DNA of 63,421 nt, filler included, from Stramenopiles sp. TOSAG23-6 (taxonomy: Eukaryota): NCBI GenBank assembly GCA_900128565.1. It is 36 parts of 36 records of this genome, joined end to end, with 100 filler letters (N's around TTAATTAATTAA, not from the genome) between each part and the next. Parts side by side here need not be neighbours in the genome. Positions count along the whole stretch, not along the records: positions 45,987 to 47,644 come from LT638737.1; 35 more parts are not named here. One strand, written 5' to 3'. The notes below the pieces were generated by a model. That model searched no databases. It saw only the letters and a list, made by a program, of their open reading frames with translations, and was not told the origin of the DNA. Positions 25,537 to 63,228 of the stretch are shown in pieces (position 1 is the stretch's first letter; the number at the start of each line of letters is the position of its first letter). The position numbers were made by a program, and so were the translations under genes.

Positions 25537-26499
25537 GTATCATTATTATTATTAGTATCATTATTAGTAAGCACAACAACAGGCGATCGTTTAGCATATA
25601 ATATTCTACCAATTGCACGAAATAGACCAGGAAATTCATTACGTGTACAAAATGTATTATTATTGTTACTTTTATGTTTTTTATGTTTTTTATGTTTTTC
25701 ATTACAAATACAACTAAATTGTAGACTATTTATCGCATGTCTCAAATCTCCTCTACAAGATTGAACTATATTATCTATACGATCATTAGATATTTTATTA
25801 CCAATATTCGTTTTTGCGTATACACTACGTAATATTTTCTTCAACATTGTATTTGATACAGCATTGATACTTATTTGATATACTAAATGATGACGAAAAA
25901 TTTCTGCTCCTAGTCAATTCTCAGCACATATTGTAAAAACATATGTCAAATTCAAAATTCGTTAATAAAATTTTGTTAAGTATAAAATTTCGTACCAAAA
26001 AAAAAAATTGATTGTTAAAACATACACGTAAAGTGTATTTTGCCTGCTTTACTTCATTCCTTCTACAATTTTCTCCATGCTGAGTCGAGCATTCCGTAAA
26101 GATTAATACTGCAGGTGATGTATTATTTAATATAACTTTCTGTATAATAGCACGAAATTCATCACATGCTTTATCATTATTGATAAAAGGAATTGAATCT
26201 ATTAACAAAATTTGCTTCTTTGTTTTTTTTTTCATTTTTTGAGTTTGAGATATAAATTGTAATTGTCTATATCTAGTAGAACGAAGAAGAAAATTTTGGA
26301 AATCTTGCATTTCAGAAGTTTCATTATTCCAACTTAAATTTGTTCTATTATTCAGATTATTCAGATTATTCAGATTATTCAGATTAGTAATATAGGTGTC
26401 ATGATTTCTATTTATAGCACGTATTGGAGACCCTGACCACTCGCATATATTAATTTCAAGGTCAGAGCAGATCGTACGGATCATCGTCGATTTTCCAAC
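24846..26499 (-). CDS. RAD17: RAD17/Rad24 checkpoint clamp loader fragment
   Basis: End of Walker A (GKST), ILLIDSIP, GDLRHAINSLQF, LFRAIGRILYAKR, FIHEN; family intron at about 25928-26025. Confidence 0.9.
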
Positions 26500-28710: not shown

Positions 28711-29883
28711 ATAACAACATCAGCCTCTTTCAATGCCTTGCCTCGACCTTTCTTGCAATGTAAATGTGAATCTTTGCCAAGTAATCCACATGTATTTGTG
28801 AAAAAATATTGTGGTTTTGTACAATTTGTTAGGTACAAAAATTTTCAAAAAAAAAAATAAAAAATTGAAAAAAAAAAAAATTGTTAGGTACAAAATTTCG
28901 TACAAAAAAAAACATACGAGCCATCCCACCAAGGAAGCAAGGGACGCCTAATTTTTGTAATGCATCTGCAAGAGAGAAAGCTCCATACGGTCCATCTTCT
29001 CCCCACAAAAGCGATTGAGAGCCAATGTATTTTGGAACAATATTTAAAAAAAAAAAACTTAAATTTGTTAGGTACAAAATTTTCAAAAAAAAAAATCGAT
29101 TTTTTTGTTTTAAAAAAAAATAAAACATACATGATAAAAACAGGTTTTTTTGCTTTAATAAGTAATTGAGCTGCAGCCTTTACATCTGCCACATTTGGTA
29201 TTGGAACATTAATTTCTAAAGGTTTAAAATGTGGGTGATGTATATCCTTACATGTATTGTGAAAAAAACACGAATTTTACCAAAAAAAAAAAAAATCGTT
29301 AGGTACGAAATTTCCTATGAAAAAAATATTTCAAAAAAAATCTAAAAAAGGTTTGTTAGGTACAAAATTTCGTACGAAAAAAAAATACATGGTATTCCTT
29401 TTGTAGCACCTTTATCCCAATCCCAAGCGCCACGGTGTAAACGTTGAAGACAAAAATCTAAATATAATTCAACAACCCACGGAGCTTTTTTTGCACCTTT
29501 ATCTCTTTGAATAAATATAGGTGTTAATGGATTTCGTTTCATTTTTTTTGTTACGTATATATTGTACAAAAATATTTTTTTTTTTTTTTGTGAATTTTTG
29601 TTAGGTACAAAATTTTCATAAAAAATTTAAAAATAAAAATGAAATTTTTTTTTTTTTTTTTTGTAAAAATATTTTTGTTAGGTACAAAATTTTCATAGTA
29701 AAAAAAAATTAAAATTAAAAATAATAATGTACATGCTTCAGGATCAACACCATGACAACTTGCTTCTACTGGAAGTATTATTTTTGAAAGATTTTTTTTA
29801 CCTGTACTTGACACGAAATCTTTCGCACGACAACGAACACTTAATCCCATATTGGATCTGATTTCACCGACTGAATAAAGGGT
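28711..29883 (-). CDS. ILVBL: ILVBL/HACL2 acetolactate synthase-like protein; GT-AT introns 29557-29732, 29252-29388, 29025-29130, 28790-28917
   Basis: Spliced product KAKKPVFI|IGSQSLL..LGVPCFLGGMA|RGLLG..KALKEADVV matches the ILVBL motif LGVPCFLGGMARGLLG. Confidence 0.9.
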
Positions 29884-30130: not shown

Positions 30131-30928
30131 TTTTGTATTTTTTGGAATATTTTTACAATTCGACATACTTGTCTTTGTGATTTTTGTGATTTTTAGAATT
30201 CAAACTCTCACTTCCACCTCCCAACAAATCAATCAGTTCGGTAAGAATTTTCTTTTCTTTCATTCTAAATTGTATAATTCGTTTCGTTCTCACATTTATA
30301 TTTGCTATATACGAATCTTCAAGTTCAGGTTTTTTTCGTATTGTTCTCATATGTATTTTGGAAAAATAAATTCTAAATTGAAAATAAATTCGTTAGGTAC
30401 AAAATTTACTATGAAAAAAAAAAAAAAAATTCGATTTTTTTTTTTTTTACCGAAAAAAAACAAAAAAAAAAATAAAACATACATTTACATTTGATATCAA
30501 CGAATCTTCAAGTGTAGGTGTTCCACTTGTTTCATCAATATTTGTTTCAGAATTTAAATTTTGTGTTGATTTAGAATTTAAATTTTGTGTTGATTTAGAA
30601 TTTATATTTTTTTTACTGTATTTATCGCGAGAATCATAATGTGTTCTCATTCCCCTCTCTACATGTATTGTGAAAAAAACACGAAATCATGAAAAAATCG
30701 TTAGGTACGAAATTTTTTTNCCNAAAAAAAAAAAAANTAANTNAATAAATTCATGATGAAAACGTACATGCTGTGCATACATGTCTAGTATTAAAGTATC
30801 TTCACGTAATGTAGTTGAATAACCATTCAGCAAAGTCTCACAAATATGTATTTTGGAAAAATATTTCAAAAAAAAAAACTAAAAAATCGTTAGGTACAAA
30901 ATTTTTATAAAAACCAAAAAAAAAAAAT

Positions 30929-30960
<32 letters not shown>

Positions 30961-30964
30961 CCGG

Positions 30965-30996
<32 letters not shown>

Positions 30997-31794
30997 ATTT
31001 TTTTTTTTTGGTTTTTATAAAAATTTTGTACCTAACGATTTTTTAGTTTTTTTTTTTGAAATATTTTTCCAAAATACATATTTGTGAGACTTTGCTGAAT
31101 GGTTATTCAACTACATTACGTGAAGATACTTTAATACTAGACATGTATGCACAGCATGTACGTTTTCATCATGAATTTATTNANTTANTTTTTTTTTTTT
31201 TNGGNAAAAAAATTTCGTACCTAACGATTTTTTCATGATTTCGTGTTTTTTTCACAATACATGTAGAGAGGGGAATGAGAACACATTATGATTCTCGCGA
31301 TAAATACAGTAAAAAAAATATAAATTCTAAATCAACACAAAATTTAAATTCTAAATCAACACAAAATTTAAATTCTGAAACAAATATTGATGAAACAAGT
31401 GGAACACCTACACTTGAAGATTCGTTGATATCAAATGTAAATGTATGTTTTATTTTTTTTTTTGTTTTTTTTCGGTAAAAAAAAAAAAAATCGAATTTTT
31501 TTTTTTTTTTTCATAGTAAATTTTGTACCTAACGAATTTATTTTCAATTTAGAATTTATTTTTCCAAAATACATATGAGAACAATACGAAAAAAACCTGA
31601 ACTTGAAGATTCGTATATAGCAAATATAAATGTGAGAACGAAACGAATTATACAATTTAGAATGAAAGAAAAGAAAATTCTTACCGAACTGATTGATTTG
31701 TTGGGAGGTGGAAGTGAGAGTTTGAATTCTAAAAATCACAAAAATCACAAAGACAAGTATGTCGAATTGTAAAAATATTCCAAAAAATACAAAA
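30131..31794. repeat. Whole-contig inverted duplication (fold-back) centred at about 30962
   Basis: The left arm is the reverse complement of the right arm, including the N positions. Confidence 0.95.
31080..31772 (+). CDS. SET-domain (Rubisco LSMT/SETD3-like) substrate-binding C-terminus; mirrored at about 30153-30845 on the minus strand
   Basis: LLNGYSTTLREDTLIL..IQFRMKEKKIL; family introns 31158-31262 and 31443-31574. Confidence 0.7.
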
Positions 31795-32061: not shown

Positions 32062-32269
32062 GTTCTGATTCATTCATTTCAATTTTTAAAAATATTTTTT
32101 TTTTCATACGAAATTTCGTACCTAACAAATTTTACAAAAAAAAAATATTTTTTCACAATATGTGTACGTTTTTCAGCATGAATTTTTTACGTACATTTTT
32201 TTTTTTTGGTAGAAAATTTCGTACCTAACGAAACATTTGATTTGAATGTACAATATTCTCCTTTGAACA

Positions 32270-40708: not shown

Positions 40709-42025
40709 GAATGGTACCGTTGATTTTACGCATAGTTCTTGTAGTTGTGGTGGAAGTTTATCCTTATTTTTAAGTAAAAATTCATTCACATCATAGTGAA
40801 CAGCGCCAGCAAAATGAACGACGGAAAATATATTTTCTTTCTTTTTGTGACCATAAAAATATTCCGATGCTTGTTTCGTAACTTTATTCTTGGCTTTCTT
40901 ATTCAAACCTTTAGCCTTGCCAAATTTTTTACAGCATTGTTTAAGAAATTGTATATCGGTAAATCCATCTTTTCCAGACACATCATCAAGCATTGGGAAA
41001 ACTCCAAGAAATTTCTTTGATTTTTTAACAATCAGATTACAGCAAGGAGTATTATCCTTGTGTTTTGGAATCATTGACGTATCTAGACCTTCCGCAGTAT
41101 ATGCAGCTTCTTCATCGTCAAACACATAATGATTGAATAACTGCTGCAACTTTTCATTCGCAAAATTAATACAGAGCTGTTCAATCGAATTTCGGGGCAT
41201 TACTTCAAATCCAAAAATATCTAAAAGCCCAACAAACGCATCTTTATCACCTTTTGGTTCCAACACATCATTGCAGACTGTCAGAATGAGCCACGAGAAT
41301 GCATTGTCATAAATGTCTTTAGACAAAGCATTTCGATTATCTACTGAGGCTGTTGGATTACACTCTTTATCTGCAAATTTTCCACCAGGTAAATTAAGGC
41401 GATATATACAAAGCATTTCCCCAAAATTATCAGGCATACCCAATAGATTAGATACTTCTTTAGCGTATTCTAAGTCCTTTACCTTGGCTCCTTGTCCGTC
41501 TTTTACAAATTCAACAGAAAGGAGTTTTAAGCAGCCTGCAATAATTTGCCATAGGGAATGTTGTACATCATCTGAAACACCAGCAGCAGTGAGAGCTGCC
41601 CGAGTTCCGGTATCATCTGGATTATCTGTTAAAGGAGCATTGAAACGATTGATATCGTATTCTGGTCCGAGACCGTGTCCGATTTCTGATGACCCACCTT
41701 CGCATAGCAAAGGGTATTCATCGCAGCTTTTGAGCTTAAAATCAGATACTTCAGTATGTCCTCCTTCTTTCCCTCCACGCAACAACTGGTAGAATATATG
41801 ATAGTTGCGCTCACCACTACCTTGACCACACAATCGAGCTTTTTCTAACAAATAATGTTCTAGCTCTGCTCCAACAATTTTACCGTCGCAAAACCAAATT
41901 TTGGTAAATTTACCAAAGCGTGATGAGTTGTCGTTCATATTAGTCTTCGCATTGCCAAACGCTTCCAGAAATGGACTTACGCCAGCTACAAGCGATGTAA
42001 TATCTTTATCACCACCAGCACCACC
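40709..42025 (-). CDS. Myosin motor domain (from switch 1 onward), in frame with the kinesin fragment
   Basis: LEAFGNAKT..NDNSSRFGKF, YLLEK, ERNYHIFYQL, GLLDIFGFE, EQLCINFANEKLQQLF, HFAGAVHY, KNKD. Confidence 0.95.
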
Positions 42026-42368
42026 AACAGCAGATTGTATTAATCGTTTTACATCTGTGAAAACTTCTTCTTGTGTTGTTTTTGACCCAAATACACGATC
42101 AAATTTGTACACACGACGTTGATTACGCTTGTCATGAAAAGCTACCTCGTTTTCGGAAATTGGTTGAATCACAGTTTTATGTTTTTCACCTCTTTCTTGA
42201 ACGTTAGGAGGTCTAACTCTACAATACACTCGAATGTTACCTTTCATGTCTTCTATTTCATTGTAATACTTTTTCCGTAATTCTTGCTCTTGAAGGAAAT
42301 CCGATCGCAATTTTGATTGTTGTGCCTCTAAGGCCTCAAGCTGGACTCGCATTCGCTCAGCTACACCT
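42026..42368 (-). CDS. Kinesin-14 neck and start of the motor domain
   Basis: RKKYYNEIEDMKGNIRVYCRVRP..FDRVFG..QEEVF..LIQSAV. Confidence 0.9.
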
Positions 42369-42468: not shown

Positions 42469-44127
42469 TTTTGTAGATTATCTATTGAATCTGTTACAAT
42501 AGCAGNACGNTNTGCATGTCGTTTATCATGAACACGGAATTTTCCTGCAGTCAATGCAATGTCGTGGATTGACCTTAAGGTGTTGTCTGCTTCAATTGCA
42601 TGCCTATACTTATGTGCTGTGTCTGTAATCGATTGATCATGAACTCCAGATACTGGCATTAATGTAAATAATCCAGTTTTGTTTTCCGATAATGTTTGTT
42701 TTTGAATGTACTTTCCCCGATCCGTATTGTACTGTTGTAGTACTACATGTGCATTTGTACCACCAAATCCAAACCCACTTGTCCCAATAACTGCACTACC
42801 TCGTGTATAATCGTCTACAAGATATTCTCCTTCTGTTACAATACGAACACCTAATTCATCAAAATTGATATGCTCATTCGGTTTATTGAGATTAAGACTT
42901 GGAGGAATCCAATTATGATGTAATATTAGTGCTGATTTTATCAAATTTGCAATTCCAGCTGCAGGTTCCAAATGTCCAATATTTGTTTTAACACTTCCTA
43001 CGCGTACAGGACCATTCATAGAAACATCACGAGTACTATTTGCTACAAGAACTCGACCTAATGCTGTTAGCTCTATCGGATCACCAAGTTTTGTACCCGT
43101 TCCATGTGCTTCGACATATGCCACGCTTGATGATGAAACACCTGCATCTTTATACGCAGCATTTAACACGGCTTCCTGAGATGCTGGATTTGGCGCAGTA
43201 AGACCGTTACTTTTACCATCTTGATTGACAGCACTTCCTTTTACTATTGCATAGACCAACCCATCATCGTTCAACGAATGACTCATACGTTTTATAACAA
43301 TCATTCCACATCCTTCACCACGAGCATATCCATTTGCGGTGTTGTCTCCAAACTTTACTTTTGCATCAGATGACAGCATTCCAGCAACATTAAACGCATC
43401 ATATGTAGACTGATTTAGTAAAATGTTGACACCACCAACTAGTGCAGCATTAATTTCTCCATTTCTCAGGGCTTTGATAGCACTATGAAAGGCAACAAGA
43501 CTCGATGAACAAGCAGTATCTACAGCAAAACTTGGTCCGCGTAAATTGAATGTATATGAAATACGATTTGCAGCAACACTTAATGCACCACCAGTACCTG
43601 AATATGGAGTAGAATGTATATTTTCTGCCAAATTCGAATAATCTGCGGCTGAAATTCCAATGTATACTCCAACCATTTCATTATCAATAACAGAACCATC
43701 ATTTTGTAGCATTCCAGAATCTTCGAGTGCTTCTCTCGCTGTTTGCAACAGAAGCCGTTGCTGTGGATCCATCGCACGAGCTTCGCTTGAAGATATACCA
43801 AAAGCTTTCGCATCAAACGTAGTTATAGTTTCTTCTGACAAAAATCCACCTCCACCACCCAGGTCTCGACGCCACGCTGGAGGGTTCATAGACATTGAAT
43901 CATTTCCACTACATAACAAATTCCAAAAAGAATCAGGTGTATTTGAATCTCCTGGGAATCGGCAAGATATTCCAGTAATGGCAATCTTTTCATGTGTATT
44001 TGTCCCAATTTTCCTTGGGACACGGATATGTTTTAACTGTACATTTTTACATTTATTTCCATTTACATTTTCAATAGGCTTTACTTGAGAGTATATATAT
44101 CGTGTAAGTGCGCGTATTGTACTATGC
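42469..44127 (-). CDS. Type I polyketide/fatty-acid synthase, ketosynthase domain
   Basis: IAITGISCRFPG, MDPQQRLLL, DTACSSS, EAHGTGT, KTNIGHLE, FGFGGTNAH. Confidence 0.96.
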
Positions 44128-44281: not shown

Positions 44282-45259
44282 GATTGGGTTAGATGCAACC
44301 TGGTTAATGGCGCATAGAATTATGGATTATTCACTTCTATTAGGTGTTGTTAGAGCCAGACAAAGATTACAACGACGTCACAGTACGTTTTAAATTTTTT
44401 TTTCATTTTTTTTTCAATTTTTTTTTCATACGAAATTTTGTACCTAACAAAACATTTAATTTTTTTTTTTTTTTTTTTAATTTTTTAGCTAACAAAACAT
44501 TTAAATTCTATTCTGAAATATTTTCCAATTGTACAGATGAGTCAAGATATAATAAATATACTCCAAATGATGAAACATCTCATTTTGAAACAAAATACAA
44601 AACAAATGAAACATCTACAATGTTTGATGATAGAAAAAACTCTATTGTACACCCTAACCCTAGTGTACACCCTAACCCTAGTGTACACCCTAACCCTAGG
44701 GTACATACGGATGAATTTCGTTATTATAAAGTCTCAAGTCGAGTATTAGAAGGACCGATGCGTTACTATATGGGTGTGATTGATATGCTTCAAAAATATG
44801 ACACGAAAAAAAAAATTGAACGATGGTATAAAACATGTATGTTGTATATGAATTTCTAATTTAAGTTTTTTTTTTTTTGGTTTTTTTTCGTAAAAAAATT
44901 TCGTACCTAACAATTTTTTTTTTTTTNAAATATTTTTTCACAATATATGTGTTCTTTGTCAAAATGCTTCCTCGATTTCGTGTGTTGATGAAACTTTATA
45001 TGCCAGTCGGTTTTTATTTTTTATTGATAATATTTGTACTGATGACGGAATTGAAAACCCTAACCCTAAAAAAAAGGCACATCAGTACCCTAACCCTAAT
45101 AACCATAATATTGTCAATAAACACGGAATTGAAAAAAAAAACACTAGTAGTAGTAACAGAATGAATAATAATGATGATTATGCTAATACAGATGATACAA
45201 TGAATGACAATATTAATAGTAGTGATGATCAATGTGGGATGTATAATTACCAAAAATAA
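44282..45259 (+). CDS. Phosphatidylinositol phosphate kinase (PIP5K) C-terminus; introns from 44383 and 44837-44948 (GT-AT)
   Basis: IMDYSLLLG, YYMGVIDMLQKY..KKIE, ISCVDETLYASRF. Confidence 0.9.
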
Positions 45260-45886: not shown

Positions 45887-46436
45887 NNNNNNNNNNNNNN
45901 NNNNNNNNNNNNNNNNNNNNNNNNNNNNNNTTAATTAATTAANNNNNNNNNNNNNNNNNNNNNNNNNNNNNNNNNNNNNNNNNNNNCGAAATTTTGTACC
46001 TAACAATTTTTTTTTTTTTTTTGAAATATTTTTCCAAAATACATGGATCGATACGGTGGTTTTGCCTTTTTATTTCATAAGAGCGAAACATCTGAAACAT
46101 TTTCTACAAACTTTTCTGAATCTCCGATTGATTTATTTTATCCCGTAATATCACGTTAAATTATATCCAAATAAAATAATATTGTCTTTTGAAAAGAAAT
46201 GTTTTTTGAGATTTTGAGATTTTGAGATTGAATTCGATTTTTACGGGTACCCGGTACCGAAACAAAATTCTGACCCACAATTTTTACTATTCTGAATTCT
46301 GACCTGACACTTGAGGAACTACCAGACTGTAGTAGTATATTACGGCCTTATAAATAGGTATTACGAACTGCTGTTGTTGATTGCTATCATCACTATTATT
46401 GGTTAAGCGGAGAAAAGAGGACCAGATTGTATCAAC

Positions 46437-47553
46437 ATGGATTTTATCGTTGACAAAATGGACGGAGGGAATAAGAGGGTTTTAGCAAACTTCGTTTATG
46501 TCCATCCGAGTGACTTTTCAAAACTAGTTTCAATGTCTGGATTACCAGATAATCTCCCTGCTAACCCTGAAGCTACTGGTATTCTCGTGAAATGTAGAGA
46601 CTTTGTCTATACAGTAAAACCTGGAGATATGGAAGATGAAGGTTGTGCTGCTTTTAATATATTCCAACGTCTTTCTGCGTCACTTCAAACAGGTAGAGAC
46701 AAAGATTACAACCCTCCTAGAATAATCGAAACAGCTCCTCGCATAACGCTAACACCCTTTTCACCATCGTTGGAAAACTTTGCTCTTCGTGCTCTCAAAC
46801 TTGAAGTAGGATTTCGAAGTATGCCTGATAGTACGAAAAAATTGATTTAGATTGTGAAATGCTTGCAGCTTTGGTAAAACATCGATTTAGTGGACAGGTT
46901 TTTTCCGTAAATCAAAGGTTTGCGGTGAAACACAAATTTCAAAATGGTAAGAAGCTGCTTCTTGAATTAAAAGTTATTTCCGTTGATCACCTCAATACGA
47001 ACAGTCTATTGAACAATGAAGGGGAACAGTCTTCTCATGCATCGTCGATGTTCTCTTCTACGTTGTCTTGTGGTCAGTTAATACAAGGAGTTGAAGGAGG
47101 TCATGCAAGTTTTTATTTTTTTCAATTTCGAATTTACTTTTTTTCGTACGAAATTTTGTACCTAACAAATTTTACAAAAAAAAATATTTTTCACACTCCA
47201 TACCGGAACGATAATCACCTTTAAAAAAGATTCTGTTAAAGGGAAGTCCCTCCGTTTACTTACTGCTGACACTGGTGAAGGTGAAAATGAAACTCCTTTC
47301 GAAGGTGGATTAGATCTCAAAAAAATGGGTATTGGAGGCCTCGATAAAGAGTTTGATGAATTACGTACTCGGGCTTTCAATACTCGATTATTACCGGCGT
47401 CTTGGATGCGAAAATTAGGACACAAACATGTCCGTGGTATATTACTCTATGGTCCTCCAGGATGTGGTAAAACTTTAATTGCGCGAAAACTGGCTGAAGC
47501 ATTAAAAGCTCGTGAACCTAAAATTGTTCAAGGTCCGGAGTTGTTAAGTAAAT
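46437..47553 (+). CDS. NSF: Vesicle-fusing ATPase NSF/Sec18, N-terminal part; probable homopolymer frameshift at about 46840; GC..AT intron 47105-47201
   Basis: [46 protein letters not shown]. Confidence 0.93.
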
Positions 47554-47940
47554 GTATGTTTCATTTTTTTTTTTAACAAAAAAATCGAATTTTTTTTGGT
47601 AAAAAAATTTTGTACCTAACAAATTTTTTTAGATTTTTTTTGAANNNNNNNNNNNNNNNNNNNNNNNNNNNNNNNNNNNNNNNNNNNNTTAATTAATTAA
47701 NNNNNNNNNNNNNNNNNNNNNNNNNNNNNNNNNNNNNNNNNNNNCAGCCAGCCAGCTACATTATGGTCAGCACTCAGTAGCTTGTGATTTTATCTTAGCT
47801 ACTAGTCCTATTTTTCTAGTAGAGTAACAATTCCATACACACAGGATGTATTTCCCGCCAATGTATAGTATGTGTTATATGCGTACTTAGTAACCAATAG
47901 ATTGCATTGTAGGTGTTATCGCGTTTCAATTGATAAAGAA

Positions 47941-50217: not shown

Positions 50218-51153
50218 TCAAGTAGAATCAAATTGTACATCAGATGAAAGCGAAGAATTAGGTCGTACATCAGTATGATTAGGGTTAGGGTTAGATACAA
50301 TTGTATTTGACTGATTGGCCATCATAATTTCTATTCTAGGCTCATTACTCTTTTGTTGCTTTGATATACAACAAAATGTACAATAACCAAAATGGAACAT
50401 ACAACAACCGACACACAATGACAAACAAACAATCATAATGATTACAATTAATCCATACAACCGAAAAGCGACAGAAAAGAAACTTGGACAAGATGAATTA
50501 AGCAATTCATGTATTTTGGAAAAATATTTCAAAAAAAAAAAAATTTCAAAATTTGTTAGGTACAAAATTTCGTACGAAAAAAAAATTCGATTTTTTTTTT
50601 CGGTAAAAAAAAAAAATAAAACATACATTTTCTTTTGCCTCTGGTGGTTTATAATTCGATCCTTTCTCGTGAATCTCTGAAAGGAAATCAAATATTGTAT
50701 CAAATCCTGGTTCTCCTGATGATGGTGGAATGTGACTCCCCTCACTGCTTGAGGCACGTGTCGCTGATGAAAATTTCGTAGCATATTCATATATTTTGGA
50801 AAAATATTTGAAAAAAAATTTGAAAAATTTATTAGGTACAAAATATCGTATGAAAAAAAAATTTTTTGGAAAAAAATTTGAAAAAAAATTTGAAAAATTT
50901 GTTAGGTACAAAATTTCGTATGAAAAAAAAATTTGAAAAAAAAAATTAAAACATACATTTGTCATGCAGTTGGTAATGATGAGATCTAATTCACTCATGT
51001 ATTGTACAAAAAATTCAAATTTTTGAAAAAAAAAAATCGTTAGGTACGAAATTTCGTAGTAAAAAAAATATTAAATTTGACATTTAAAAAAAAAAATAAA
51101 AAAGTACATGTAGATATACATGGGTAATGAATAGGGCGATTTTTCATTGATAC
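50218..51153 (-). CDS. Membrane-anchored hypothetical protein, 3' exons with three GT-AT introns (e.g. 50509-50626)
   Basis: In-frame joins MTN|EYATK..AKEN|ELLNSSC; C-terminal TM helix. Confidence 0.65.
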
Positions 51154-51492
51154 NNNNNNNNNNNNNNNNNNNNNNNNNNNNNNNNNNNNNNNNNNNNTTA
51201 ATTAATTAANNNNNNNNNNNNNNNNNNNNNNNNNNNNNNNNNNNNNNNNNNNNACTCGTAGGTATCATTTATATGGTAACATAACTTCAAATTGTAGATA
51301 TATATGCAGAAACCAAGTAGTCACACTAGTACTAAAAAAGCTCTAAAAAAAAAAATTTAACGTAAAAAAAAAAAATGAAACTGATTACCTGTGACTGTTA
51401 TATTTGTAAAGAAGGTGCAAAGAAGAGCCAAAGAATCATGATGAACGATAGAATACAATGAAAGAAGACACCGTTATTTTTCTATTAGTATA

Positions 51493-52827
51493 ATGGGTCT
51501 AGAAAATGACACAACTGCGTCGGCTCCAACGAGACCGAAGGATGATACAGTAAGCGTTCCACAAACTCCATTTGTAAACAGTGTGGCTGTTCCTCTCCGT
51601 GAGGTAAATGTTACACAAAACCAACCTGTAAACAATATGGTTGGTTTTGTAAACAACAATCCACAAAATTTGGCCGACAGAGTAGAACCAACTGAGTATG
51701 ATATGAGCTTTCAATATCATGTACGCAGTTTAATTCTGACGATACTTAGTCTTGTCGGAATCATTTTGGCCATATATGAGCAGGAGGTTAAAGCGGTGGT
51801 AGATGGACATGACAATCTCTTTTTGATCCTCGGATGTTGCATGTATGGTGTCTACTTATGTGAAAGCATGATATTTCCAATGTGCTGTGATTGCGTTCTT
51901 GTAAGTAGCACATTTCGATATTTGTTGAAAGTTGATTCTTCTGCAGATTCTAAAAAATATCAGGAAAATTTACAGAGTAACCCCCCAAAAATTACAATGC
52001 ATGTGTCTTGTTATCACTATGAAACAAGGACGCATCATAGTACAGATTCGCAAGGACGGACAACAACAAGTACAACTACTGAAAAAGTTACAACTTATAG
52101 CGGCTGGCAAGAGAAAACATTTAGAAGCTGGGCTGATTGTAGTGGACGGATTCCTGAATTTACACTGAAAGTCCCAGAATTGAATCCAGAACTATCAACT
52201 AATCCTAATCCAGAGCTGTCAACTACATCGCAACAGCTGATACACAGAGTAGTTCACGAAGAAGCTGACGAAGAAGCTGCTCACGTTCAAGAAGAACCTT
52301 ATAGAATAATCAAGCTGAAAATTGAAAAATCATATGAGCCGTTTGATGAAGCTACAACGGCTCATCTTGAACAACAAGCATCAATGTATAAAGCACAACA
52401 CTATTGGAGAGATACTCACATGGACTATTCCGAATCTTTTGATATAGATGATTATGTTTCGAAAACTTTAATTATCGACGGAATACCTCCATCAGGGTTA
52501 GGGTTAGGTTGTTTTGTACTAGCATCTCTTTTTCTCTGTACCTGGCCGTATAGAATATGGGTTGAGACGCATTCTCATCGATGTGAGTATGTTTTATTTT
52601 TTTGAAAATTTGAATTTTTTTTTGTACGAAATTTTGTACCTAACAAAAAATTTTAATTTTTTTTTTGAAATATTTTTCCAAAATAAATGTGGCATTTGAA
52701 GAAAGTCATTAGTGTGGGTGATCTTTCGATTCAACTTCAAAGTAATACTTTACCAAAGGGTTGGATACCCATTGCACAGGCAGTAACTTTTGTATCACCA
52801 TATGACTCTACAATCCCCATTGCAGAA
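51493..52827 (+). CDS. TMEM151-like membrane protein; GT-AT intron 52587-52688
   Basis: YGVYLCE, PPKITMHVSCYHY, WADCS, IKLKIEK, FVLASLFLCTWPYR..CE|WHLKKVISV. Confidence 0.8.
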
Positions 52828-53007
52828 GTATGTTTTTTTTTTTTCAATTTTGAATTTTTTTTTCGTACGAAATTTTGTACCTAACAAATTTTAGTTTTTT
52901 TTTTTGANNNNNNNNNNNNNNNNNNNNNNNNNNNNNNNNNNNNNNNNNNNNTTAATTAATTAANNNNNNNNNNNNNNNNNNNNNNNNNNNNNNNNNNNNN
53001 NNNNNNN

Positions 53008-54661
53008 ACTCGTAGGTATCATTTATATGGTAACATAACTTCAAATTGTAGATATATATGCAGAAACCAAGTAGTCACACTAGTACTAAAAAAGCTCTAA
53101 AAAAAAAAATTTAACGTAAAAAAAAAAAATGAAACTGATTACCTGTGACTGTTATATTTGTAAAGAAGGTGCAAAGAAGAGCCAAAGAATCATGATGAAC
53201 GATAGAATACAATGAAAGAAGACACCGTTATTTTTCTATTAGTATAATGGGTCTAGAAAATGACACAACTGCGTCGGCTCCAACGAGACCGAAGGATGAT
53301 ACAGTAAGCGTTCCACAAACTCCATTTGTAAACAGTGTGGCTGTTCCTCTCCGTGAGGTAAATGTTACACAAAACCAACCTGTAAACAATATGGTTGGTT
53401 TTGTAAACAACAATCCACAAAATTTGGCCGACAGAGTAGAACCAACTGAGTATGATATGAGCTTTCAATATCATGTACGCAGTTTAATTCTGACGATACT
53501 TAGTCTTGTCGGAATCATTTTGGCCATATATGAGCAGGAGGTTAAAGCGGTGGTAGATGGACATGACAATCTCTTTTTGATCCTCGGATGTTGCATGTAT
53601 GGTGTCTACTTATGTGAAAGCATGATATTTCCAATGTGCTGTGATTGCGTTCTTGTAAGTAGCACATTTCGATATTTGTTGAAAGTTGATTCTTCTGCAG
53701 ATTCTAAAAAATATCAGGAAAATTTACAGAGTAACCCCCCAAAAATTACAATGCATGTGTCTTGTTATCACTATGAAACAAGGACGCATCATAGTACAGA
53801 TTCGCAAGGACGGACAACAACAAGTACAACTACTGAAAAAGTTACAACTTATAGCGGCTGGCAAGAGAAAACATTTAGAAGCTGGGCTGATTGTAGTGGA
53901 CGGATTCCTGAATTTACACTGAAAGTCCCAGAATTGAATCCAGAACTATCAACTAATCCTAATCCAGAGCTGTCAACTACATCGCAACAGCTGATACACA
54001 GAGTAGTTCACGAAGAAGCTGACGAAGAAGCTGCTCACGTTCAAGAAGAACCTTATAGAATAATCAAGCTGAAAATTGAAAAATCATATGAGCCGTTTGA
54101 TGAAGCTACAACGGCTCATCTTGAACAACAAGCATCAATGTATAAAGCACAACACTATTGGAGAGATACTCACATGGACTATTCCGAATCTTTTGATATA
54201 GATGATTATGTTTCGAAAACTTTAATTATCGACGGAATACCTCCATCAGGGTTAGGGTTAGGTTGTTTTGTACTAGCATCTCTTTTTCTCTGTACCTGGC
54301 CGTATAGAATATGGGTTGAGACGCATTCTCATCGATGTGAGTATGTTTTATTTTTTTGAAAATTTGAATTTTTTTTTGTACGAAATTTTGTACCTAACAA
54401 AAAATTTTAATTTTTTTTTTGAAATATTTTTCCAAAATAAATGTGGCATTTGAAGAAAGTCATTAGTGTGGGTGATCTTTCGATTCAACTTCAAAGTAAT
54501 ACTTTACCAAAGGGTTGGATACCCATTGCACAGGCAGTAACTTTTGTATCACCATATGACTCTACAATCCCCATTGCAGAAGTATGTTTTTTTTTTTTCA
54601 ATTTTGAATTTTTTTTTCGTACGAAATTTTGTACCTAACAAATTTTAGTTTTTTTTTTTGA
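53008..54661. repeat. Duplicate of contig 51254-52907
   Basis: Same sequence and same ends, offset 1754. Confidence 0.97.
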
Positions 54662-60019: not shown

Positions 60020-61670
60020 CTGCAGCCCACAAACCTTTTTTCTCTTTTATATCTGCCAGTTTATCTTGCCACGATTGGGCCTCCTTTTGTAAATCAGATT
60101 CAAGTTTGTTGGCTATTCTAGTAGTCCATTCATTCCACATTTCTCTTGCTAAATAATTTACTTCTCTTTCGTCAGCTGTACCTATATTTTTAATGATAGA
60201 AAAAAATTGTGATATTTAGTGAATAAAAGATATTGAATGTAAAATGTTGTTGGTAATATTGAGTAATGATACGATTATAACATACCATTCCATGCCATTC
60301 GGCCAATTGATCTCACAGCCATACGCTTTACTTTGACATGCGGCGAGTGACACAATGCCAAGAGAATTTGAATGACACAATTTTCACGCAATTTATCGTT
60401 CAAAAGCTGTGATCGACCGGCGAGCCGATCAACAGCATCACAAAAGAAGTGAATGAACTCATCAGTATTTGTCAGAATTACTCGAATACTTTCGTCCCTC
60501 CGCCAAACTTCACGACGCCAAGTAGCTTTATGTACTTCGAATACTGCTTTCTGATTGATTGCATCCAGCTTTAAATCTTCGATAACTTCTCCAAGTTTTT
60601 CAATTTTACTCTCGAGAAAATTTACCAAGTGTGCATGGTTTGTCAAATGCTCATTTTTATCGAATATCTGCCTCATAGCATCACTATGTACTTGAGCTTG
60701 TTGTCGAATGTACTTTTCTGTCTCATCTTTGTATTTATTCGTCTCTTTCCTATGACGTTGCATATCCGTTTGCATAGCTTTAATCCATTTAGTTTTAGAT
60801 TCAATTATTTCTTGCTTTTCTTTGATACTTGCTTTTAAGGCAGTCTCCTTTTTACTGAAATCTAAAGCCATCTTTCTAATTGTACTCTGCATTTTTCTCC
60901 TCTCTTCCTCCATAGCTTCCTGTTTTTTAAGAATATCACCTCTGAGAAACTTCATGGCTTCTCGAGATGAACCACGTATCGCATTAATTTCGACATTCAA
61001 AACTTTCATTCTTCCCTTCATCACATCTCTTTCCAAATCATACTCAAATTTCGTGTCAATGATCTGTTTTTTGAGACTTTCTAATTCTCGTTTTGCAGTG
61101 TATAAATCTCTTCGATTGTTCAATTCGGCATCTTTTATGGCAGAATTCAACATGAATAAATGAAAACTTTCACTAGTGTGTATATTAAATTGTTGCTTAG
61201 ATAAAGCTCTCGCGTCAGATGCGATACCTATACAATGACATAACAATAAAATCTCTTTTGTTCTTATCATTTCTTGATCGGCATCTTTTCGCCTTGTTTT
61301 AAGCTCTATTACATCTCCATTATCTTTCGAAGCAATTTCCGCTTGTCGCAATGATTCCTTCACATCTTGTAGTCCAACGGTTGACGTTGCTAAAACATAT
61401 TTAAAGGTTTCCTTTCGTCGCTCATAATCTCCCTTATATGAAATATACGCCTGCATAGCCTTTTTAAACGAAGCTATATCTTCCTCATATTTATCTTGAA
61501 TACGCTTCTGCATTTCTAATTTATGTTCACGCTCGGCCTTTTGAAGAGCCTCCATTACAGCATTTTGTTCTTCTTTTGCTTGATTATTTGCTTCACTATC
61601 GGATACAACTGGAGAATCTTCAATCATATATTGTTCTGGTATGATTGGTTCGGGAGGTTCTTCTGGCTCT
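60020..61670 (-). CDS. Coiled-coil protein with an ARM-like region; canonical GT-AG intron 60182-60285
   Basis: 450-aa ORF; AWNG|TADERE joined at GTATGT..TATAG. Confidence 0.7.
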
Positions 61671-61931: not shown

Positions 61932-63228
61932 TTATTCATTGTCATCATTACCCGGTACTGCCATAAAATATCTATTCATTGCATTCACGAAACGTCGTTT
62001 ATATTTTGGTGGAGCAACAATTGTTGGCATATGTTTTGCTACTACTCTTTTTCCATGTAATTTTTGAAAATATTTCAAAATTTTTTCAAGTTTTTTTGTT
62101 AGGTACAAAATTTCGTATGAAAAAAAAAAAAGGTGTTTTTGTTGATTTTTTTTTTTAAATTGACCTACATGAGATTCTACAAATTTGATGACGTCATAAC
62201 ATCGCATATAATCAATAATTCCAACCACTAAATTGTTATTTTCTTCGTCTAAACCTACTAATAATGAATAATCCATACATTATTAGACAATATTTCAAAT
62301 GAGTTTTTGTTAGGTATCAAATTTCGTATGAAAAAAAATGTTTTGAAAAAAATTTGAAAAAATGAGTTTTTGTTAGGTATCAAATTTCGTATGAAAAAAG
62401 TTTTTGAAAAAAATTTGAAAAAAAATTCAAATGTTTAATAAAAATATACAAAATAAATAATGAAAACGTACATAATTTTCCCGGATAACAAAAAATTGAT
62501 GTATTGTGAAGTATAATGCATAAAAAAAAATCGTTAGGTATAAAATTTTGTATAAAAAAAATTTAAATTTTTAAAGAAAAGTTTGTTAGGTATAAAATTT
62601 TGTATAAAAAAAATTCAAATTTTTGATGAAAATTAGGGTTAGGGTTTTGATGTACGTATCATTTGTAACTGCTGAATTTAAAAATTGTTTTGCATTAAAT
62701 CGAAGTGATAAAATGTATTGAATGAAATATTTCAAAAATTTCAAAAATTAGATTTTGTCTTGTTAGGTATGAAATTTTTTTTTTCTTGCGATAAAAAAAA
62801 ATTGAAAAAAAAATTTTTGAAAAAAATTGAAAAAAAAAAAAATTTGAAAAAAATTGAAATTCATGATGAAAACATATGGAAATCCTTTTGTATATTCCAT
62901 AAAATTTTGATCTAATAAAACGCCAATTCCATTATTATTATTATTATTATTATTAGCAGTAGTAGTATCATTATCATTATTATTATTATTATTAGTAGTA
63001 GTAGTAGTATTATTAGGGTTAGGGCTTTGTTCAGGTTGTTTAGATTCACTTTTATGATTATCATTATGATTATTATTATTATTGCTACTACTTGATATAC
63101 TGACATCCTCATCATTAATTTCATTTTGATATATTGCAAAAAATATTTTACATTCATTTTTTTTTTGTAAGTTATAACAAATATCTAAATTTTTTTTTTT
63201 TTTTTTTTTTGGGACGAAATTTTGTATG

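Follow-up and report, generated by a model that had tools for sequence, protein, structure and literature searches.

We consider it probable that an uncultured marine stramenopile, itself probably of MAST-3, carries a very abundant, young, introner-like family of stereotyped spliceosomal introns with GT...AT ends, in which the palindromes of the founder copy are not kept as a hairpin. The window, meaning the whole stretch of DNA that was analysed (63,421 nucleotides, 59,514 of them other than N), joins 36 small contigs with linkers of N. The assembly behind it is of single-cell type, with known indel errors and with chimeric and duplicated contigs, and many of its contigs break inside the repeat.

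The family is marked by a 25-nt block, TTTCGTACGAAATTTTGTACCTAAC, at 47142-47166 on the plus strand; the interval 47143-47166 given in an earlier note on this DNA begins one base inside it. With up to three mismatches the block has 42 matches in the window and none expected (mean 0.00 and maximum 0 over 100 dinucleotide-preserving shuffles). A looser scan, for a 25-mer ending in a CTAAC-like pentamer with up to eight mismatches and with duplicated contigs dropped, yields 58 unique copies. AAATTTYGTACCTAAC occurs 42 times in the window and TACCTAAC 59 times, and TTTCGTACGAAA is present at 14 sites (28 hits when both strands are counted). An independent run of metagenomic DNA (X3) shows a summed depth of 118,243 on the intron core, compared with about 5 on the flanking exon; 2,843 contigs were placed, and the depth should not be read as a copy number. 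The core is also deep in RNA libraries, which may represent unspliced RNA or contaminating DNA.

The block at 47142-47166 lies in the gene for NSF, the vesicle-fusing ATPase, where the following features are placed.

46832..47104, plus strand: upstream exon, N-terminal region of NSF (open reading frame and alignment to P0002).
47105..47201, plus strand: intron of 97 nt, GCAAGT...CTCCAT (reading frames and homology).
47105..47110, plus strand: 5' splice site GCAAGT, where the family consensus is GTATGT or GTACGT.
47142..47150, plus strand: variable 5' part of the block, TTTCGTACG, which is the 5' arm of the palindromes (counts of changes in the arm columns).
47151..47166, plus strand: near-invariant branch region of 16 nt, AAATTTTGTACCTAAC, with the putative branch adenosine at 47165.
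47184..47201, plus strand: 3' motif ATATTTTTCACACTCCAT, a T-run and then a CA-rich stretch ending in AT, with the predicted cut after 47201.
47202..47570, plus strand: downstream exon, start of the NSF D1 AAA domain (Pfam AAA, E 1.5e-7).

With 47105..47201 removed, an open frame of 91 codons continues in phase 0 into one of 124, and within the intron no AG stands between the branch motif and the conserved second exon. The exon at 47202..47570 has a top database match of 99% identity, and the next family intron runs from 47571, with the next donor, GTATGT, and its block at 47590-47622. Against P0002, a predicted protein of a relative, the spliced NSF model scores 700, and a set of boundaries imitating the public model P0001 scores 636; the public NSF gene model omits 27 codons and enters the next intron. 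Moving the acceptor by -3 or +3 gives 699 and 700 (shifts of 6 give 684-688), so that homology places the NSF acceptor only within one codon; the NSF sequence P0271 is too divergent at the junction to help. A homopolymer indel at 46835 breaks the frame upstream, and the sole X3 DNA contig at that point has one extra A. The record 2 contig of X3 (46809-47140) passes from exon into intron, and no DNA contig joins the exons across it. On 45987-47644, where contigs from three metatranscriptome runs and from a DNA run were placed, none bridges 47105-47201, and the joints link different repeat copies, not splice junctions; splicing at this locus is thus read from frames and homology only.

The same termini recur throughout the family. 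Among 26 complete introns, about 90-176 nt long, the 5' end is GT in 25 and GC in one, and all 26 end in AT, with no AG at all between branch motif and exon in 14 of 24; here the earlier note, with its inference that AG recognition is substituted, finds support as regards the missing AG. The 5' sites are GTATGT (14), GTACGT (4) and GTATTT (3), with GTGAGT, GCAAGT, GTAGGT, GTACAT and GTTTGT once each, which makes 18 of 26 either GTATGT or GTACGT. In the 3' motif of 24 introns, T is present at -15 and -13 in every case, at -14 in 22 and at -12 in 23; A occupies -9 in 23, and the last two bases are A and T in all 24. Nearly all known introns end in AG, and those of this family appear to end in AT. 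They have the GT or GC 5' site of U2-type introns and a branch motif upstream of the 3' end, but AG at the 3' end in 0 of 26, and are on this account a variant of that class rather than ordinary members of it.

Reading frames agree with these ends. At shift 0 the frame is kept by 22 of the 26 3' motif ends that could be tested, as it is by 22 at -3 and 21 at +3, compared with only 6-9 at the six out-of-frame shifts. On inspection of the sequence, three of the four misses resemble internal pseudo-ends of dimeric introns; the fourth has the GTACAT donor and is in frame when checked separately (62 + 70 open codons). The upstream exon ends in AT in 20 of 26, so most boundaries can slide by 2-3 nt, and the downstream exon begins with G in 16 of 26. 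An AG stands close to the end in three introns: 3 nt before it in 1270-1361, 5 nt in 12930-13019 and 6 nt in 16899-17067. The first and third would be in frame, so that AG could be used there.

Two other genes bear on where the introns end and on what the organism otherwise splices.

6155..6311, plus strand: ABC-transporter intron 1, family-like, GTACGT...TATAT (homology).
6360..6480, plus strand: ABC-transporter family intron 2, GTGAGT...CAAAT (homology, no slide).
6586..6745, plus strand: ABC-transporter family intron 3, GTTTGT...CCAAAT, with two branch blocks (homology).
20033..20131, minus strand: canonical GT-AG intron of a transketolase gene, GTACGT...ACAATACAG (continuity of the Pfam profile).

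Residues 60-184 of the spliced ABC-transporter model align without gaps to residues 833-957 of P0121. When the boundaries are shifted by 3 or 6 nt in either direction (24 shifts), 23 score lower and one gives a stop, the losses being -236 to -654 summed over 29 homologues and -9 to -36 for P0121 alone. At intron 6586..6745 it is the acceptor at -3 that gives the stop codon, and the remaining shifts there cost 236-605. The boundaries of 6360..6480 cannot slide without changing the message; given that message, its termini are therefore GT and AT. No homologue turned up in a search with 5347-6246. The transketolase gene holds a family intron as well, and the exons on either side of its GT-AG intron meet at positions 29 and 30 of Pfam Transketolase_N. 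GT-AG introns are thus spliced in the same organism and even in the same gene, which limits the earlier proposal that a structured branch signal substitutes for AG recognition. For a 115-aa open reading frame through intron 62055-62168, a PIKfyve kinase chain of solved structure matches both exons, with a variable loop between them that leaves the junction unfixed; solved structures gave no useful match to single short exons (33-42 aa).

Conservation within the block is markedly one-sided. Each of positions 10-25 is kept in 55-58 of the 58 copies, bar a C/T site at 16, G17 (48 of 58) and C25 (51 of 58). The pattern by which copies were picked demanded a CTAAC-like end, which by itself accounts for part of the conservation in the last five bases but not for the asymmetry of the arms. 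In the six columns of the 5' arm there are 87 changes in 330 cells, and in the six of the 3' arm 11 in 330. The six CpG positions account for 120 of the 155 differences in the block, 72 of these being CpG-type transitions, and the T and A positions of the 5' part outside CpG have 11 changes in 110 cells. Despite no sign of constraint, the 5' arm is still recognisable in most copies.

Likeness over the whole length and the presence of subfamilies make this an introner-like family. The 58 unique copies resemble each other beyond the splice signals in unrelated genes, and inspection of the introns reveals spacer motifs specific to subfamilies. Variants far apart are also linked: copies with C at block position 16 more often have GA after CTAAC (6 of 13 versus 4 of 40, p 0.009), and introns with C at +4 of the 5' site more often have C at -8 (4 of 4 versus 7 of 20, p 0.03). 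It is unlikely that these are ordinary old introns, made alike without copying by very strict splice signals and AT-rich, low-complexity spacers, and no introner at all. The best-conserved parts are indeed exactly the three splice signals, and the spacers are mostly T- and A-runs that align by composition. Signs of a terminal repeat and of a target duplication are weak as well: the terminal inverted repeat spans no more than about 4-6 nt (GTAT...ATAC), 6 of 26 introns lack the candidate AT duplication, the AT/G pattern at the borders would be expected as much from a preference for certain targets or splice sites as from a duplication of 2-3 nt, and no long element was found. However, subsets of copies in unrelated genes have in common spacer motifs that are not splice signals, for example ACCGA(n)TCGAATTT, AACAAAAAAATCGA, CATGAATTTC and TTTTAGATTTTTTTTGAAATATTTTT; the linked variants, the persistence of an apparently unconstrained 5' arm and the breaking of assemblies within the repeat also speak for copying. 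The predicted proteins of the relative, P0002 and P0121, are colinear over five of the intron positions, which, read with the style of the gene-model names, suggests that the relative has no non-canonical intron there; this is the sole hint of a recent gain.

A metagenome scan for close relatives found none; it gave 80 AAA-ATPase loci, with a top identity of 59% and the motif in none of them. Six exact matches to the motif in a scan of viral contigs all lie within unrelated coding sequence and are for that reason taken as chance matches. In the main texts covered by a full-text literature search, GT-AT introns or introners in MAST-3 are not reported.

The earlier note had read the block as a selected stem-loop, formed by two palindromes, that presents the branch site, with a variant U2-type snRNA possibly reading TACCTAAC and the structured signal replacing AG recognition. 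Such a model now appears very unlikely. Both palindromes are present in the consensus, which can form a stem of 6 bp and a loop of 4 nt (-4.4 kcal/mol, a structure that makes up 65% of the ensemble), but the statement that they occur in most copies is true of the 3' half only: all six pairs of the larger palindrome are intact in 17 of 55 aligned copies, the other 38 keeping five pairs (14 copies), four (11), three (9) or two (4). Similarly, the G-U variants that had been named do occur, 41 of 58 copies having T at block position 16 (G-U pair kept) and 3 of 58 C8 to T (U-G pair kept), but G5 to A, the commonest variant (21 of 58), leaves an A-C mismatch, and C8 to G or A (18 of 58) breaks the stem. 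Counted over 47 distinct copies, the C/T change at position 16 stays paired as G-U in 17, A-U in 11 and G-C in 7, and a minority subfamily, GGTAAAAAAATTTYGTACC, has a different, partly complementary 5' arm, both of which favour pairing; against this, 30 of the 47 have lost the closing G-C pair and 22 the C-G pair. Introns that are in frame include some whose copy of the stem is broken, for example 16639-16763, 29025-29130 and 31443-31574.

Nor does the alignment as a whole carry a signal of pairing. Paired cells amount to 73.0%, against 73.1 +- 0.8 in column shuffles, with 295 of 500 shuffles at least equal, and RNAalifold predicts 0 pairs on the aligned copies. The fold of the 30-nt block, at -4.4 kcal/mol, has a z of only -1.93 and is equalled by 10 of 200 shuffles. 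A selected stem should constrain both arms, whereas these decay unequally, and the block has neither compensatory change nor constraint on both sides. No covariation was found beyond the CpG-type transition bias, the outcome that the earlier note had itself set against a stem. The palindrome looks like a remnant of the founder copy, not a working RNA hairpin.

Six RNAs were folded, among them the 30-nt block and four whole introns, and five of them gave z values of -0.85 to -1.93. In the one at z -4.98 the 5' end pairs with the block, not with the 3' end. On paper, the intron 5' end GUAYGUUU can pair with AAA[UUU]YGUAC beside the branch site; the pairing is striking in that one copy, and both sides are invariant.

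The usual branch consensus is CTAAC or TACTAAC, and the corresponding box of U2 is GUAGUA. By its likeness to this consensus, the branch adenosine would be the A of CTAAC (47165). All 24 introns examined have a CTAAC-like motif, placed 36-48 nt before the 3' end, and its atypical form, already remarked on in the earlier note, is confirmed by the counts in the window: TACCTAAC 59, TACTAAC 4, TACTTAAC 3 and TCCTTAAC 1. The assignment of TACTTAAC to a RAD17 intron also holds, the adjoining open reading frame matching Pfam Rad17 (E 1e-10). Argued from the GUAGUA box, TACCTAAC would pair fully with a U2 having one extra G, a point in favour of the snRNA part of the stem-loop model. A search of the window for Rfam families gave no match at the gathering score, nor at E 0.1.

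U12-type introns have the 5' site RTATCCTT and the branch motif TCCTTAAC about 10-26 nt before the 3' end, and Blastocystis is a relative of MAST-3. It is highly improbable that the family is U12-type or AT-AC, with true ends AT...AC two bases to the left and a U12-like snRNA reading the branch motif; minor snRNA boxes matching GTAYGTTT and GTACCTAAC would be implied. AT precedes the intron in 20 of 26 and CAT ends it in 15 of 26, which leaves 11 of 26 formally readable as AT-AC, and TACCTAAC is intermediate between the U2-type and U12-type consensus. However, in 6 of 26 the GT is not preceded by AT, and 11 of 26 lack CAT at the end, so that the redrawing as AT-AC, which fits just 11, was rejected, and GT...AT alone fits 26 of 26. 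The 5' site GTAYGT is that of the organism's own GT-AG introns and unlike the U12 consensus, which is found in 0 of 26 (+5 and +6 are GT, not CC). The distance of 36-48 nt from branch adenosine to 3' end is also outside the U12-type range, and TCCTTAAC occurs only once in the window. As described in parts of one survey, U12-type introns tolerate non-AG ends, and the stramenopile Blastocystis sp. subtype 1 has 253 putative minor introns, 77% of them AT-AC (10.1101/2022.09.24.509304). The same source gives them an extended, conserved branch motif (...CCTTAAC) and 3' ends in AC, AT or AA, which the family here recalls, whereas its 5' site, branch-to-end distance and abundance do not fit (10.1101/2022.09.24.509304).

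It is scarcely credible that the elements are never removed from RNA, being excised from DNA like the internal eliminated sequences of ciliates or lying in dead genes or assembly artefacts: short inverted ends, AT at both borders, chimeric and duplicated contigs and the depth of the core in RNA libraries would suit this, but the full set of spliceosomal signals stands in sense orientation in every gene tested, the X3 DNA contig enters the intron from the exon with none joining the exons, and the host genes keep long open frames and conserved domains. DNA elimination of the ciliate type was dropped as unsupported.

Yeast-type introns have near-invariant GTATGT and TACTAAC. The family here has the same 5' site, the CTAAC core, a distance of tens of nucleotides from branch to 3' end and a 3' site chosen downstream of the branch; it differs from the yeast type in the extra C that gives TACCTAAC, in conservation that reaches 9 bases further upstream and in the AT end.

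With the introners of Micromonas, Aureococcus and many other, mostly aquatic, eukaryotes, as the main texts describe them, the family has in common a large number of short, nearly identical introns spread over unrelated genes, a division into subfamilies and a very high copy number, and also short inverted ends and a short direct border repeat that would let the target supply one splice site (PMC9860276, PMC12130899). Those introners were described from annotated introns, with AG or AC as the 3' sites accepted in the methods (PMC12130899), whereas the family here ends in AT in 26 of 26 and, unlike them, has no transposase partner, clear terminal repeat or target duplication seen. "MAST" and "stramenopile" are absent from the main texts of PMC9860276 and PMC12130899. 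The introners of Amoebophrya, a parasitic dinoflagellate, are likewise repeated non-GT-AG introns of a marine protist, with 3-5-nt direct border repeats, inverted repeats and a puzzle for the spliceosome; as reported in the part of the source used, their terminal dinucleotides are not fixed, their ends are paired by inverted repeats of 8-20 nt, and no U1 was found (PMC7789003). The family here, by contrast, has constant GT...AT termini, a classical 5' site and branch motif and an end-pairing of about 4-9 bp, and so lacks the variable termini and extended end duplex of the end-pairing introns of Euglena and Amoebophrya. Appendicularian tunicates, according to the portion of PMC13326754 relied on here, also combine splicing of the major type with a large-scale escape from the AG rule and an implied change in 3'-site recognition; most of their introns are without both GT and AG, with a divergent U2AF implicated (PMC13326754). 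In the stramenopile GT is kept, only the last base departs from AG, and AG introns stand in the same genes.

A copied GT...AT family, which we favour, could be explained as follows. The palindromes would be a property of the founder sequence, with a 5' arm that is decaying, mostly at CpGs, and a 3' arm that together with CTAAC forms the almost invariant AAATTTYGTACCTAAC, a putative one-sided, extended branch-site signal. Four fixed elements would define each intron. A yeast-like GTAYGT would open it, the branch region of 16 nt would come next, and beyond a spacer of some 20-30 nt a T-run would lead into C(C/A)A(A/C)AAT(A)YAT, with the cut after the terminal AT of this motif, 36-48 nt from the branch adenosine. 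The major spliceosome presumably removes these introns, choosing the 3' site by position and context and tolerating T for G, and the family may have spread by transposition or reverse splicing into AT/G sites. The AT end would then exist because the family enters such sites, where the gene is restored only if the cut follows the second AT.

Tentatively, and with a little less than even confidence, we propose that an abundant uncultured lineage of marine stramenopiles has on the order of ten thousand major-type introns cut after AT, the cut being set by a constant 16-nt branch region and a T-run/CA-rich motif at a fixed distance, beside GT-AG introns in the same genes. If this is true, the second step of the spliceosome accepts U at the last intron position in the right context, possibly by way of a changed U2 branch box or of changed U2AF or step-2 factors. 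At stake is the weight of the terminal G against branch distance and context in the reading of the 3' site; if confirmed in RNA, the family would provide a natural, genome-scale set of GT-AT introns beside GT-AG introns, making 3' splice-site choice testable in a wild eukaryote. A lineage of stramenopile grazers would also join the organisms with multiplying copied introns, and surveys built on annotated GT-AG or AT-AC introns could miss entire families. Two MAST-3 single-cell assemblies have 2,694-3,289 predicted genes in 19-21 Mb, as given in a part of PMC5778133; unmodelled family introns could partly explain such low gene counts in MAST-3, and gene catalogues would be affected.

The 25-nt core at 47142-47166 (+) belongs to a repeat that is matched, at up to three mismatches, 42 times in the window and never in 100 shuffles; at up to eight mismatches the block has 58 unique copies, about one per kb of non-N sequence. 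Every copy lies in the same setting, which opens with GTATGT/GTACGT and leads through a T-rich spacer to the block, closed by CTAAC; ~20-30 nt further on comes a conserved T-run followed by C(C/A)A(A/C)AAT(A)YAT. The window (G+C ~30%) comprises 36 separate contigs of 1,651-1,683 nt rather than a single locus, artificially joined by N44-TTAATTAATTAA-N44 linkers, so that the neighborhood of one contig to the next carries no meaning. Duplicates or palindromic chimeras account for three contigs and, since two contigs are apparently present twice, raw motif counts include duplicates. The repeat family interrupts the assembly, with many contigs ending within it.

Contigs and dispersed motifs of the window
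17758-19426 = 19527-21195, duplicate pair (identical ORF lists, apparently identical sequence)
51254-52907 = 53008-54661, duplicate pair (identical ORF lists, apparently identical sequence)
40709-42367 (-), 42513-44126 (-), 10672-12342 (+), contigs with one unbroken ORF
5349, 5567, 16742 (-), 35485 (-), 44652-44698, 50280 (-), 62634 (-), examples of the telomere-like motif CCCTAACCCTA

Family introns are spread very unevenly among genes, as several contigs form one unbroken ORF of 538-557 codons; one encodes a myosin head joined to a kinesin-like microtubule-binding region, another a ketoacyl synthase and a third a cNMP-binding protein. The telomere-like motif CCCTAACCCTA, which when permuted gives the branch core CCTAAC, occurs at 18 dispersed sites (0 expected), some within long ORFs and some within family introns. 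The contig 30131-31794 is perfectly palindromic, with the same ORF lists on both strands and intron copies mirrored about 30962. Its center is a long T-run/CCGG/A-run within a family intron, and this hairpin probably seeded an amplification or assembly chimera.

The 3′ end of each intron was set by the conserved motif alone, and the flanking open frames were then checked for joining. In-frame joins were obtained for 22 of 26 testable unique 3′ ends (22 at -3, 21 at +3 and 6-9 at other shifts). Three of the four misses resemble, by inspection, internal pseudo-ends within dimeric introns; the fourth, whose donor is GTACAT, joins in frame between stretches of 62 and 70 open codons. All 26 complete introns close with AT, and their first six bases are GTATGT in 14, GTACGT in 4, GTATTT in 3 and one-off variants in the others. 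Lengths range from 90 to 176 nt (median 113, n = 24), and the presumed branch A lies 36-48 nt from the intron end (24 introns). In 14 of 24 introns the stretch from the branch motif to the exon lacks AG; of the remaining 10, seven have it only close to the branch motif, 22-35 nt before the intron end, two at both 22-35 and 3-5 nt, and one only at 6 nt.

Family introns of the ABC-transporter gene and dimeric introns
6155-6311, ABC-transporter intron
6360-6480, ABC-transporter intron
6586-6745, ABC-transporter intron
28790-28917 (-), dimeric intron, two branch blocks
29252-29388 (-), dimeric intron, two branch blocks
29557-29732 (-), dimeric intron, two branch blocks
50789-50956 (-), dimeric intron, two branch blocks

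Spliced at GT...AT boundaries, the ABC-transporter model aligns without gaps to its best homolog, the predicted protein P0121 of a relative (model residues 60-184 to P0121 833-957). Each of 24 donor or acceptor shifts of ±3 or ±6 lowers the score or creates a stop, the losses being -236 to -654 summed over 29 homologs and -9 to -36 for P0121 alone. Because intron 6360-6480 cannot slide either way, its ends are GT and AT, given the ABC-transporter message. The intron that holds the core described first (47105-47201, +, in the NSF gene) is less tightly placed: against P0002, the NSF protein of the relative, its spliced model scores 700, with 699 at acceptor -3, 700 at +3 and 636 for the public gene-model junction, so that the alignment fixes the predicted acceptor only to within one codon. 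That range contains no AG. No RNA contig bridging this junction was found among metatranscriptome contigs; judged from sequence, the family introns would be removed by splicing.

The public NSF model (P0001, 46407-47573, +) omits 27 codons of the second exon and continues into the next intron. At 46835 the A-run lacks one base relative to the sole covering DNA contig of X3, an independent metagenome run, and this breaks the frame. The top database match of the NSF-type ATPase exon, at 99% identity, is a EukProt record named GSMAST32..., followed at 84% by a EukProt model and a JGI protein, and then by oomycete and Blastocystis NSF proteins. From the name of the top match, the host is probably a MAST-3 stramenopile.

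Introns with AG ends are present in the same organism.

Introns with canonical AG ends
20033-20131 (-), 99 nt, GTACGT...TTTTACAATACAG, transketolase gene
14424-15469 (-) and 60265-60285 (-), second, unrelated family GTAYGTNATAATCGTAYCATT...ATATAG

Across the transketolase intron the Pfam profile passes from position 29, at the end of the preceding exon, to position 30, at the start of the following one; the match of the downstream exon reaches position 166, at residue 137 of 139. Just past the 3′ end of that exon lies a block copy (19560-19592) in an intron whose 3′ end is lost in N. The second family has seven tandem copies in an LRR gene, one per 171-nt unit, and one in another gene (8 matches vs. 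0.04 expected), and its 5′ end can pair with CGTAC 12 nt downstream. As AG introns coexist with the family, the organism is not blind to AG. Their 3′ context (ACAATACAG, AAATATAG) equals that of the family (ACAATACAT, AATATAT) except for the last base. The family end thus differs from a normal 3′ site by one base change, and the cut apparently falls at the same position.

The earlier note had seen in the block a conserved RNA hairpin, with variants compatible with a stem, and this reading did not survive alignment of 55 of the 58 copies without gaps (44463, 29917 and 13023, with 7-8 mismatches and unrelated or degenerate-looking, were omitted). For the 6-bp helix (GTACGA with TYGTAC), 73.0% of cells are paired, while column shuffles give 73.1 ± 0.8 and do at least as well in 295 of 500 cases; among 47 distinct copies its outer G-C pair is broken in 30 and the C-G pair in 22. 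The small helix (TTTC with GAAA) reaches 85.1% vs. 83.6% (69 of 500 shuffles do at least as well). RNAalifold predicted no pairs on the block copies, and folding is weak, both for the block at 47142-47166 (-4.4 kcal/mol, z -1.93) and for its whole intron (z -0.85; three other introns -0.92 to -1.67). The arms, mirrored in the consensus, differ in constraint, the 5′ arm having 87 changed cells and the 3′ arm 11, of 330 each (p 5e-18); when only the non-CpG T and A positions are counted, the figures are 11/110 and 0/110 (p 7.5e-4). No covariation was seen, 120 of the 155 differences from consensus falling at six CpG positions and 72 being CpG-type transitions. The palindrome is therefore inherited, not maintained, and it is the one-sided 16-mer AAATTTYGTACCTAAC that is conserved.

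The first 16 nt of one intron, 10173-10268 (-), repeat the block in inverted orientation, apart from a bulge of 3 nt, and the intron folds at -18.9 kcal/mol (z -4.98; 0 of 200 shuffles as stable). Pairing of this kind is also possible in the consensus, between GUAYGUUU and AAA[UUU]YGUAC, and would bring the 5′ splice site next to the presumed branch A (both sides invariant).

Likeness among copies extends past the splice signals. Subsets of introns from unrelated genes share spacer motifs, and variants that lie far apart occur together: at block position 16, C goes with GA after CTAAC (6/13 vs. 4/40, p 0.009), and C at +4 with C at -8 (4/4 vs. 7/20, p 0.03). The 5′ arm, though unconstrained, remains recognizable. 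In run X3 the summed depth of the intron core is 118,243 vs. ~5 on the adjoining exon (2,843 contigs), and in two RNA runs of one sample ~23,000 vs. 2-4, sums that are not copy numbers; in order of magnitude they nonetheless fit one copy per kb in a ~20 Mb genome. On these grounds the family is filed as introner-like. The dimeric introns, in frame at their outer ends only, appear to be two family copies, in some cases from different subfamilies, that fused or were nested one within the other. At 32119-32240 (+), two family introns stand back to back (...CACAATAT, then GT, then GTACGT...), as either a 0-2 nt exon between two introns or one composite intron. The Rad17 intron 25926-26026 (-), which carries the TACTTAAC variant, ends in ...ACAATAT; beyond it all three frames close within 5 codons, and the next long ORF begins 12 nt further on, owing perhaps to a fault in the assembly, another very small exon or decay of the copy.

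The signals, the distances between them and the in-frame junctions are observed. In the most likely mechanism, GTAYGT would be recognized by the major spliceosome, U2 and/or a branch-point-binding protein would select the branch through the 16-nt region, and the second step would use the HAT closing the T-run/CA-rich motif, ~40 nt downstream of the branch. With regard to the possible variant U2-type snRNA of the earlier note, an Rfam search of the window gave no match, even at E 0.1. A metagenome scan for relatives found nothing closer than 59%, and a scan of viral contigs with the motif gave chance matches only. Over five of these intron positions the predicted proteins P0002 and P0121 stay colinear, which would scarcely be expected of an ab initio gene model if GT-AT introns were present; this hints that such introns are absent from that relative.

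The nearest known systems, as far as the parts of the sources considered go, comprise introner elements (PMC9860276, PMC12130899), Amoebophrya with its non-canonical introners (PMC7789003), appendicularian non-canonical introns (PMC13326754) and U12-type introns with non-AG ends (10.1101/2022.09.24.509304). Within those parts, none of the four has a classical 5′ site together with a constant branch region of 16 nt and an AT end that does not vary. The sections considered of a study of MAST single-cell genomes do not mention unusual introns (PMC5778133), and a search of full-text literature, main texts only, found no report of GT-AT introns or introners in MAST-3.

Upstream exons end in AT in 20 of 26 cases and downstream exons start with G in 16 of 26, so the family borders read AT|GT...AT|G. 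These borders fit equally a small DNA element bounded by GTAT...ATAC that duplicates 2-3 nt of its target, insertion into AT|G sites by reverse splicing, or an exon preference of the splicing machinery itself. Under target duplication or reverse splicing, a cut after the second AT would restore the gene, which would explain the persistence of the odd end. The interest of the family lies in its AT-ending, copied introns and not in the hairpin that prompted the finding.
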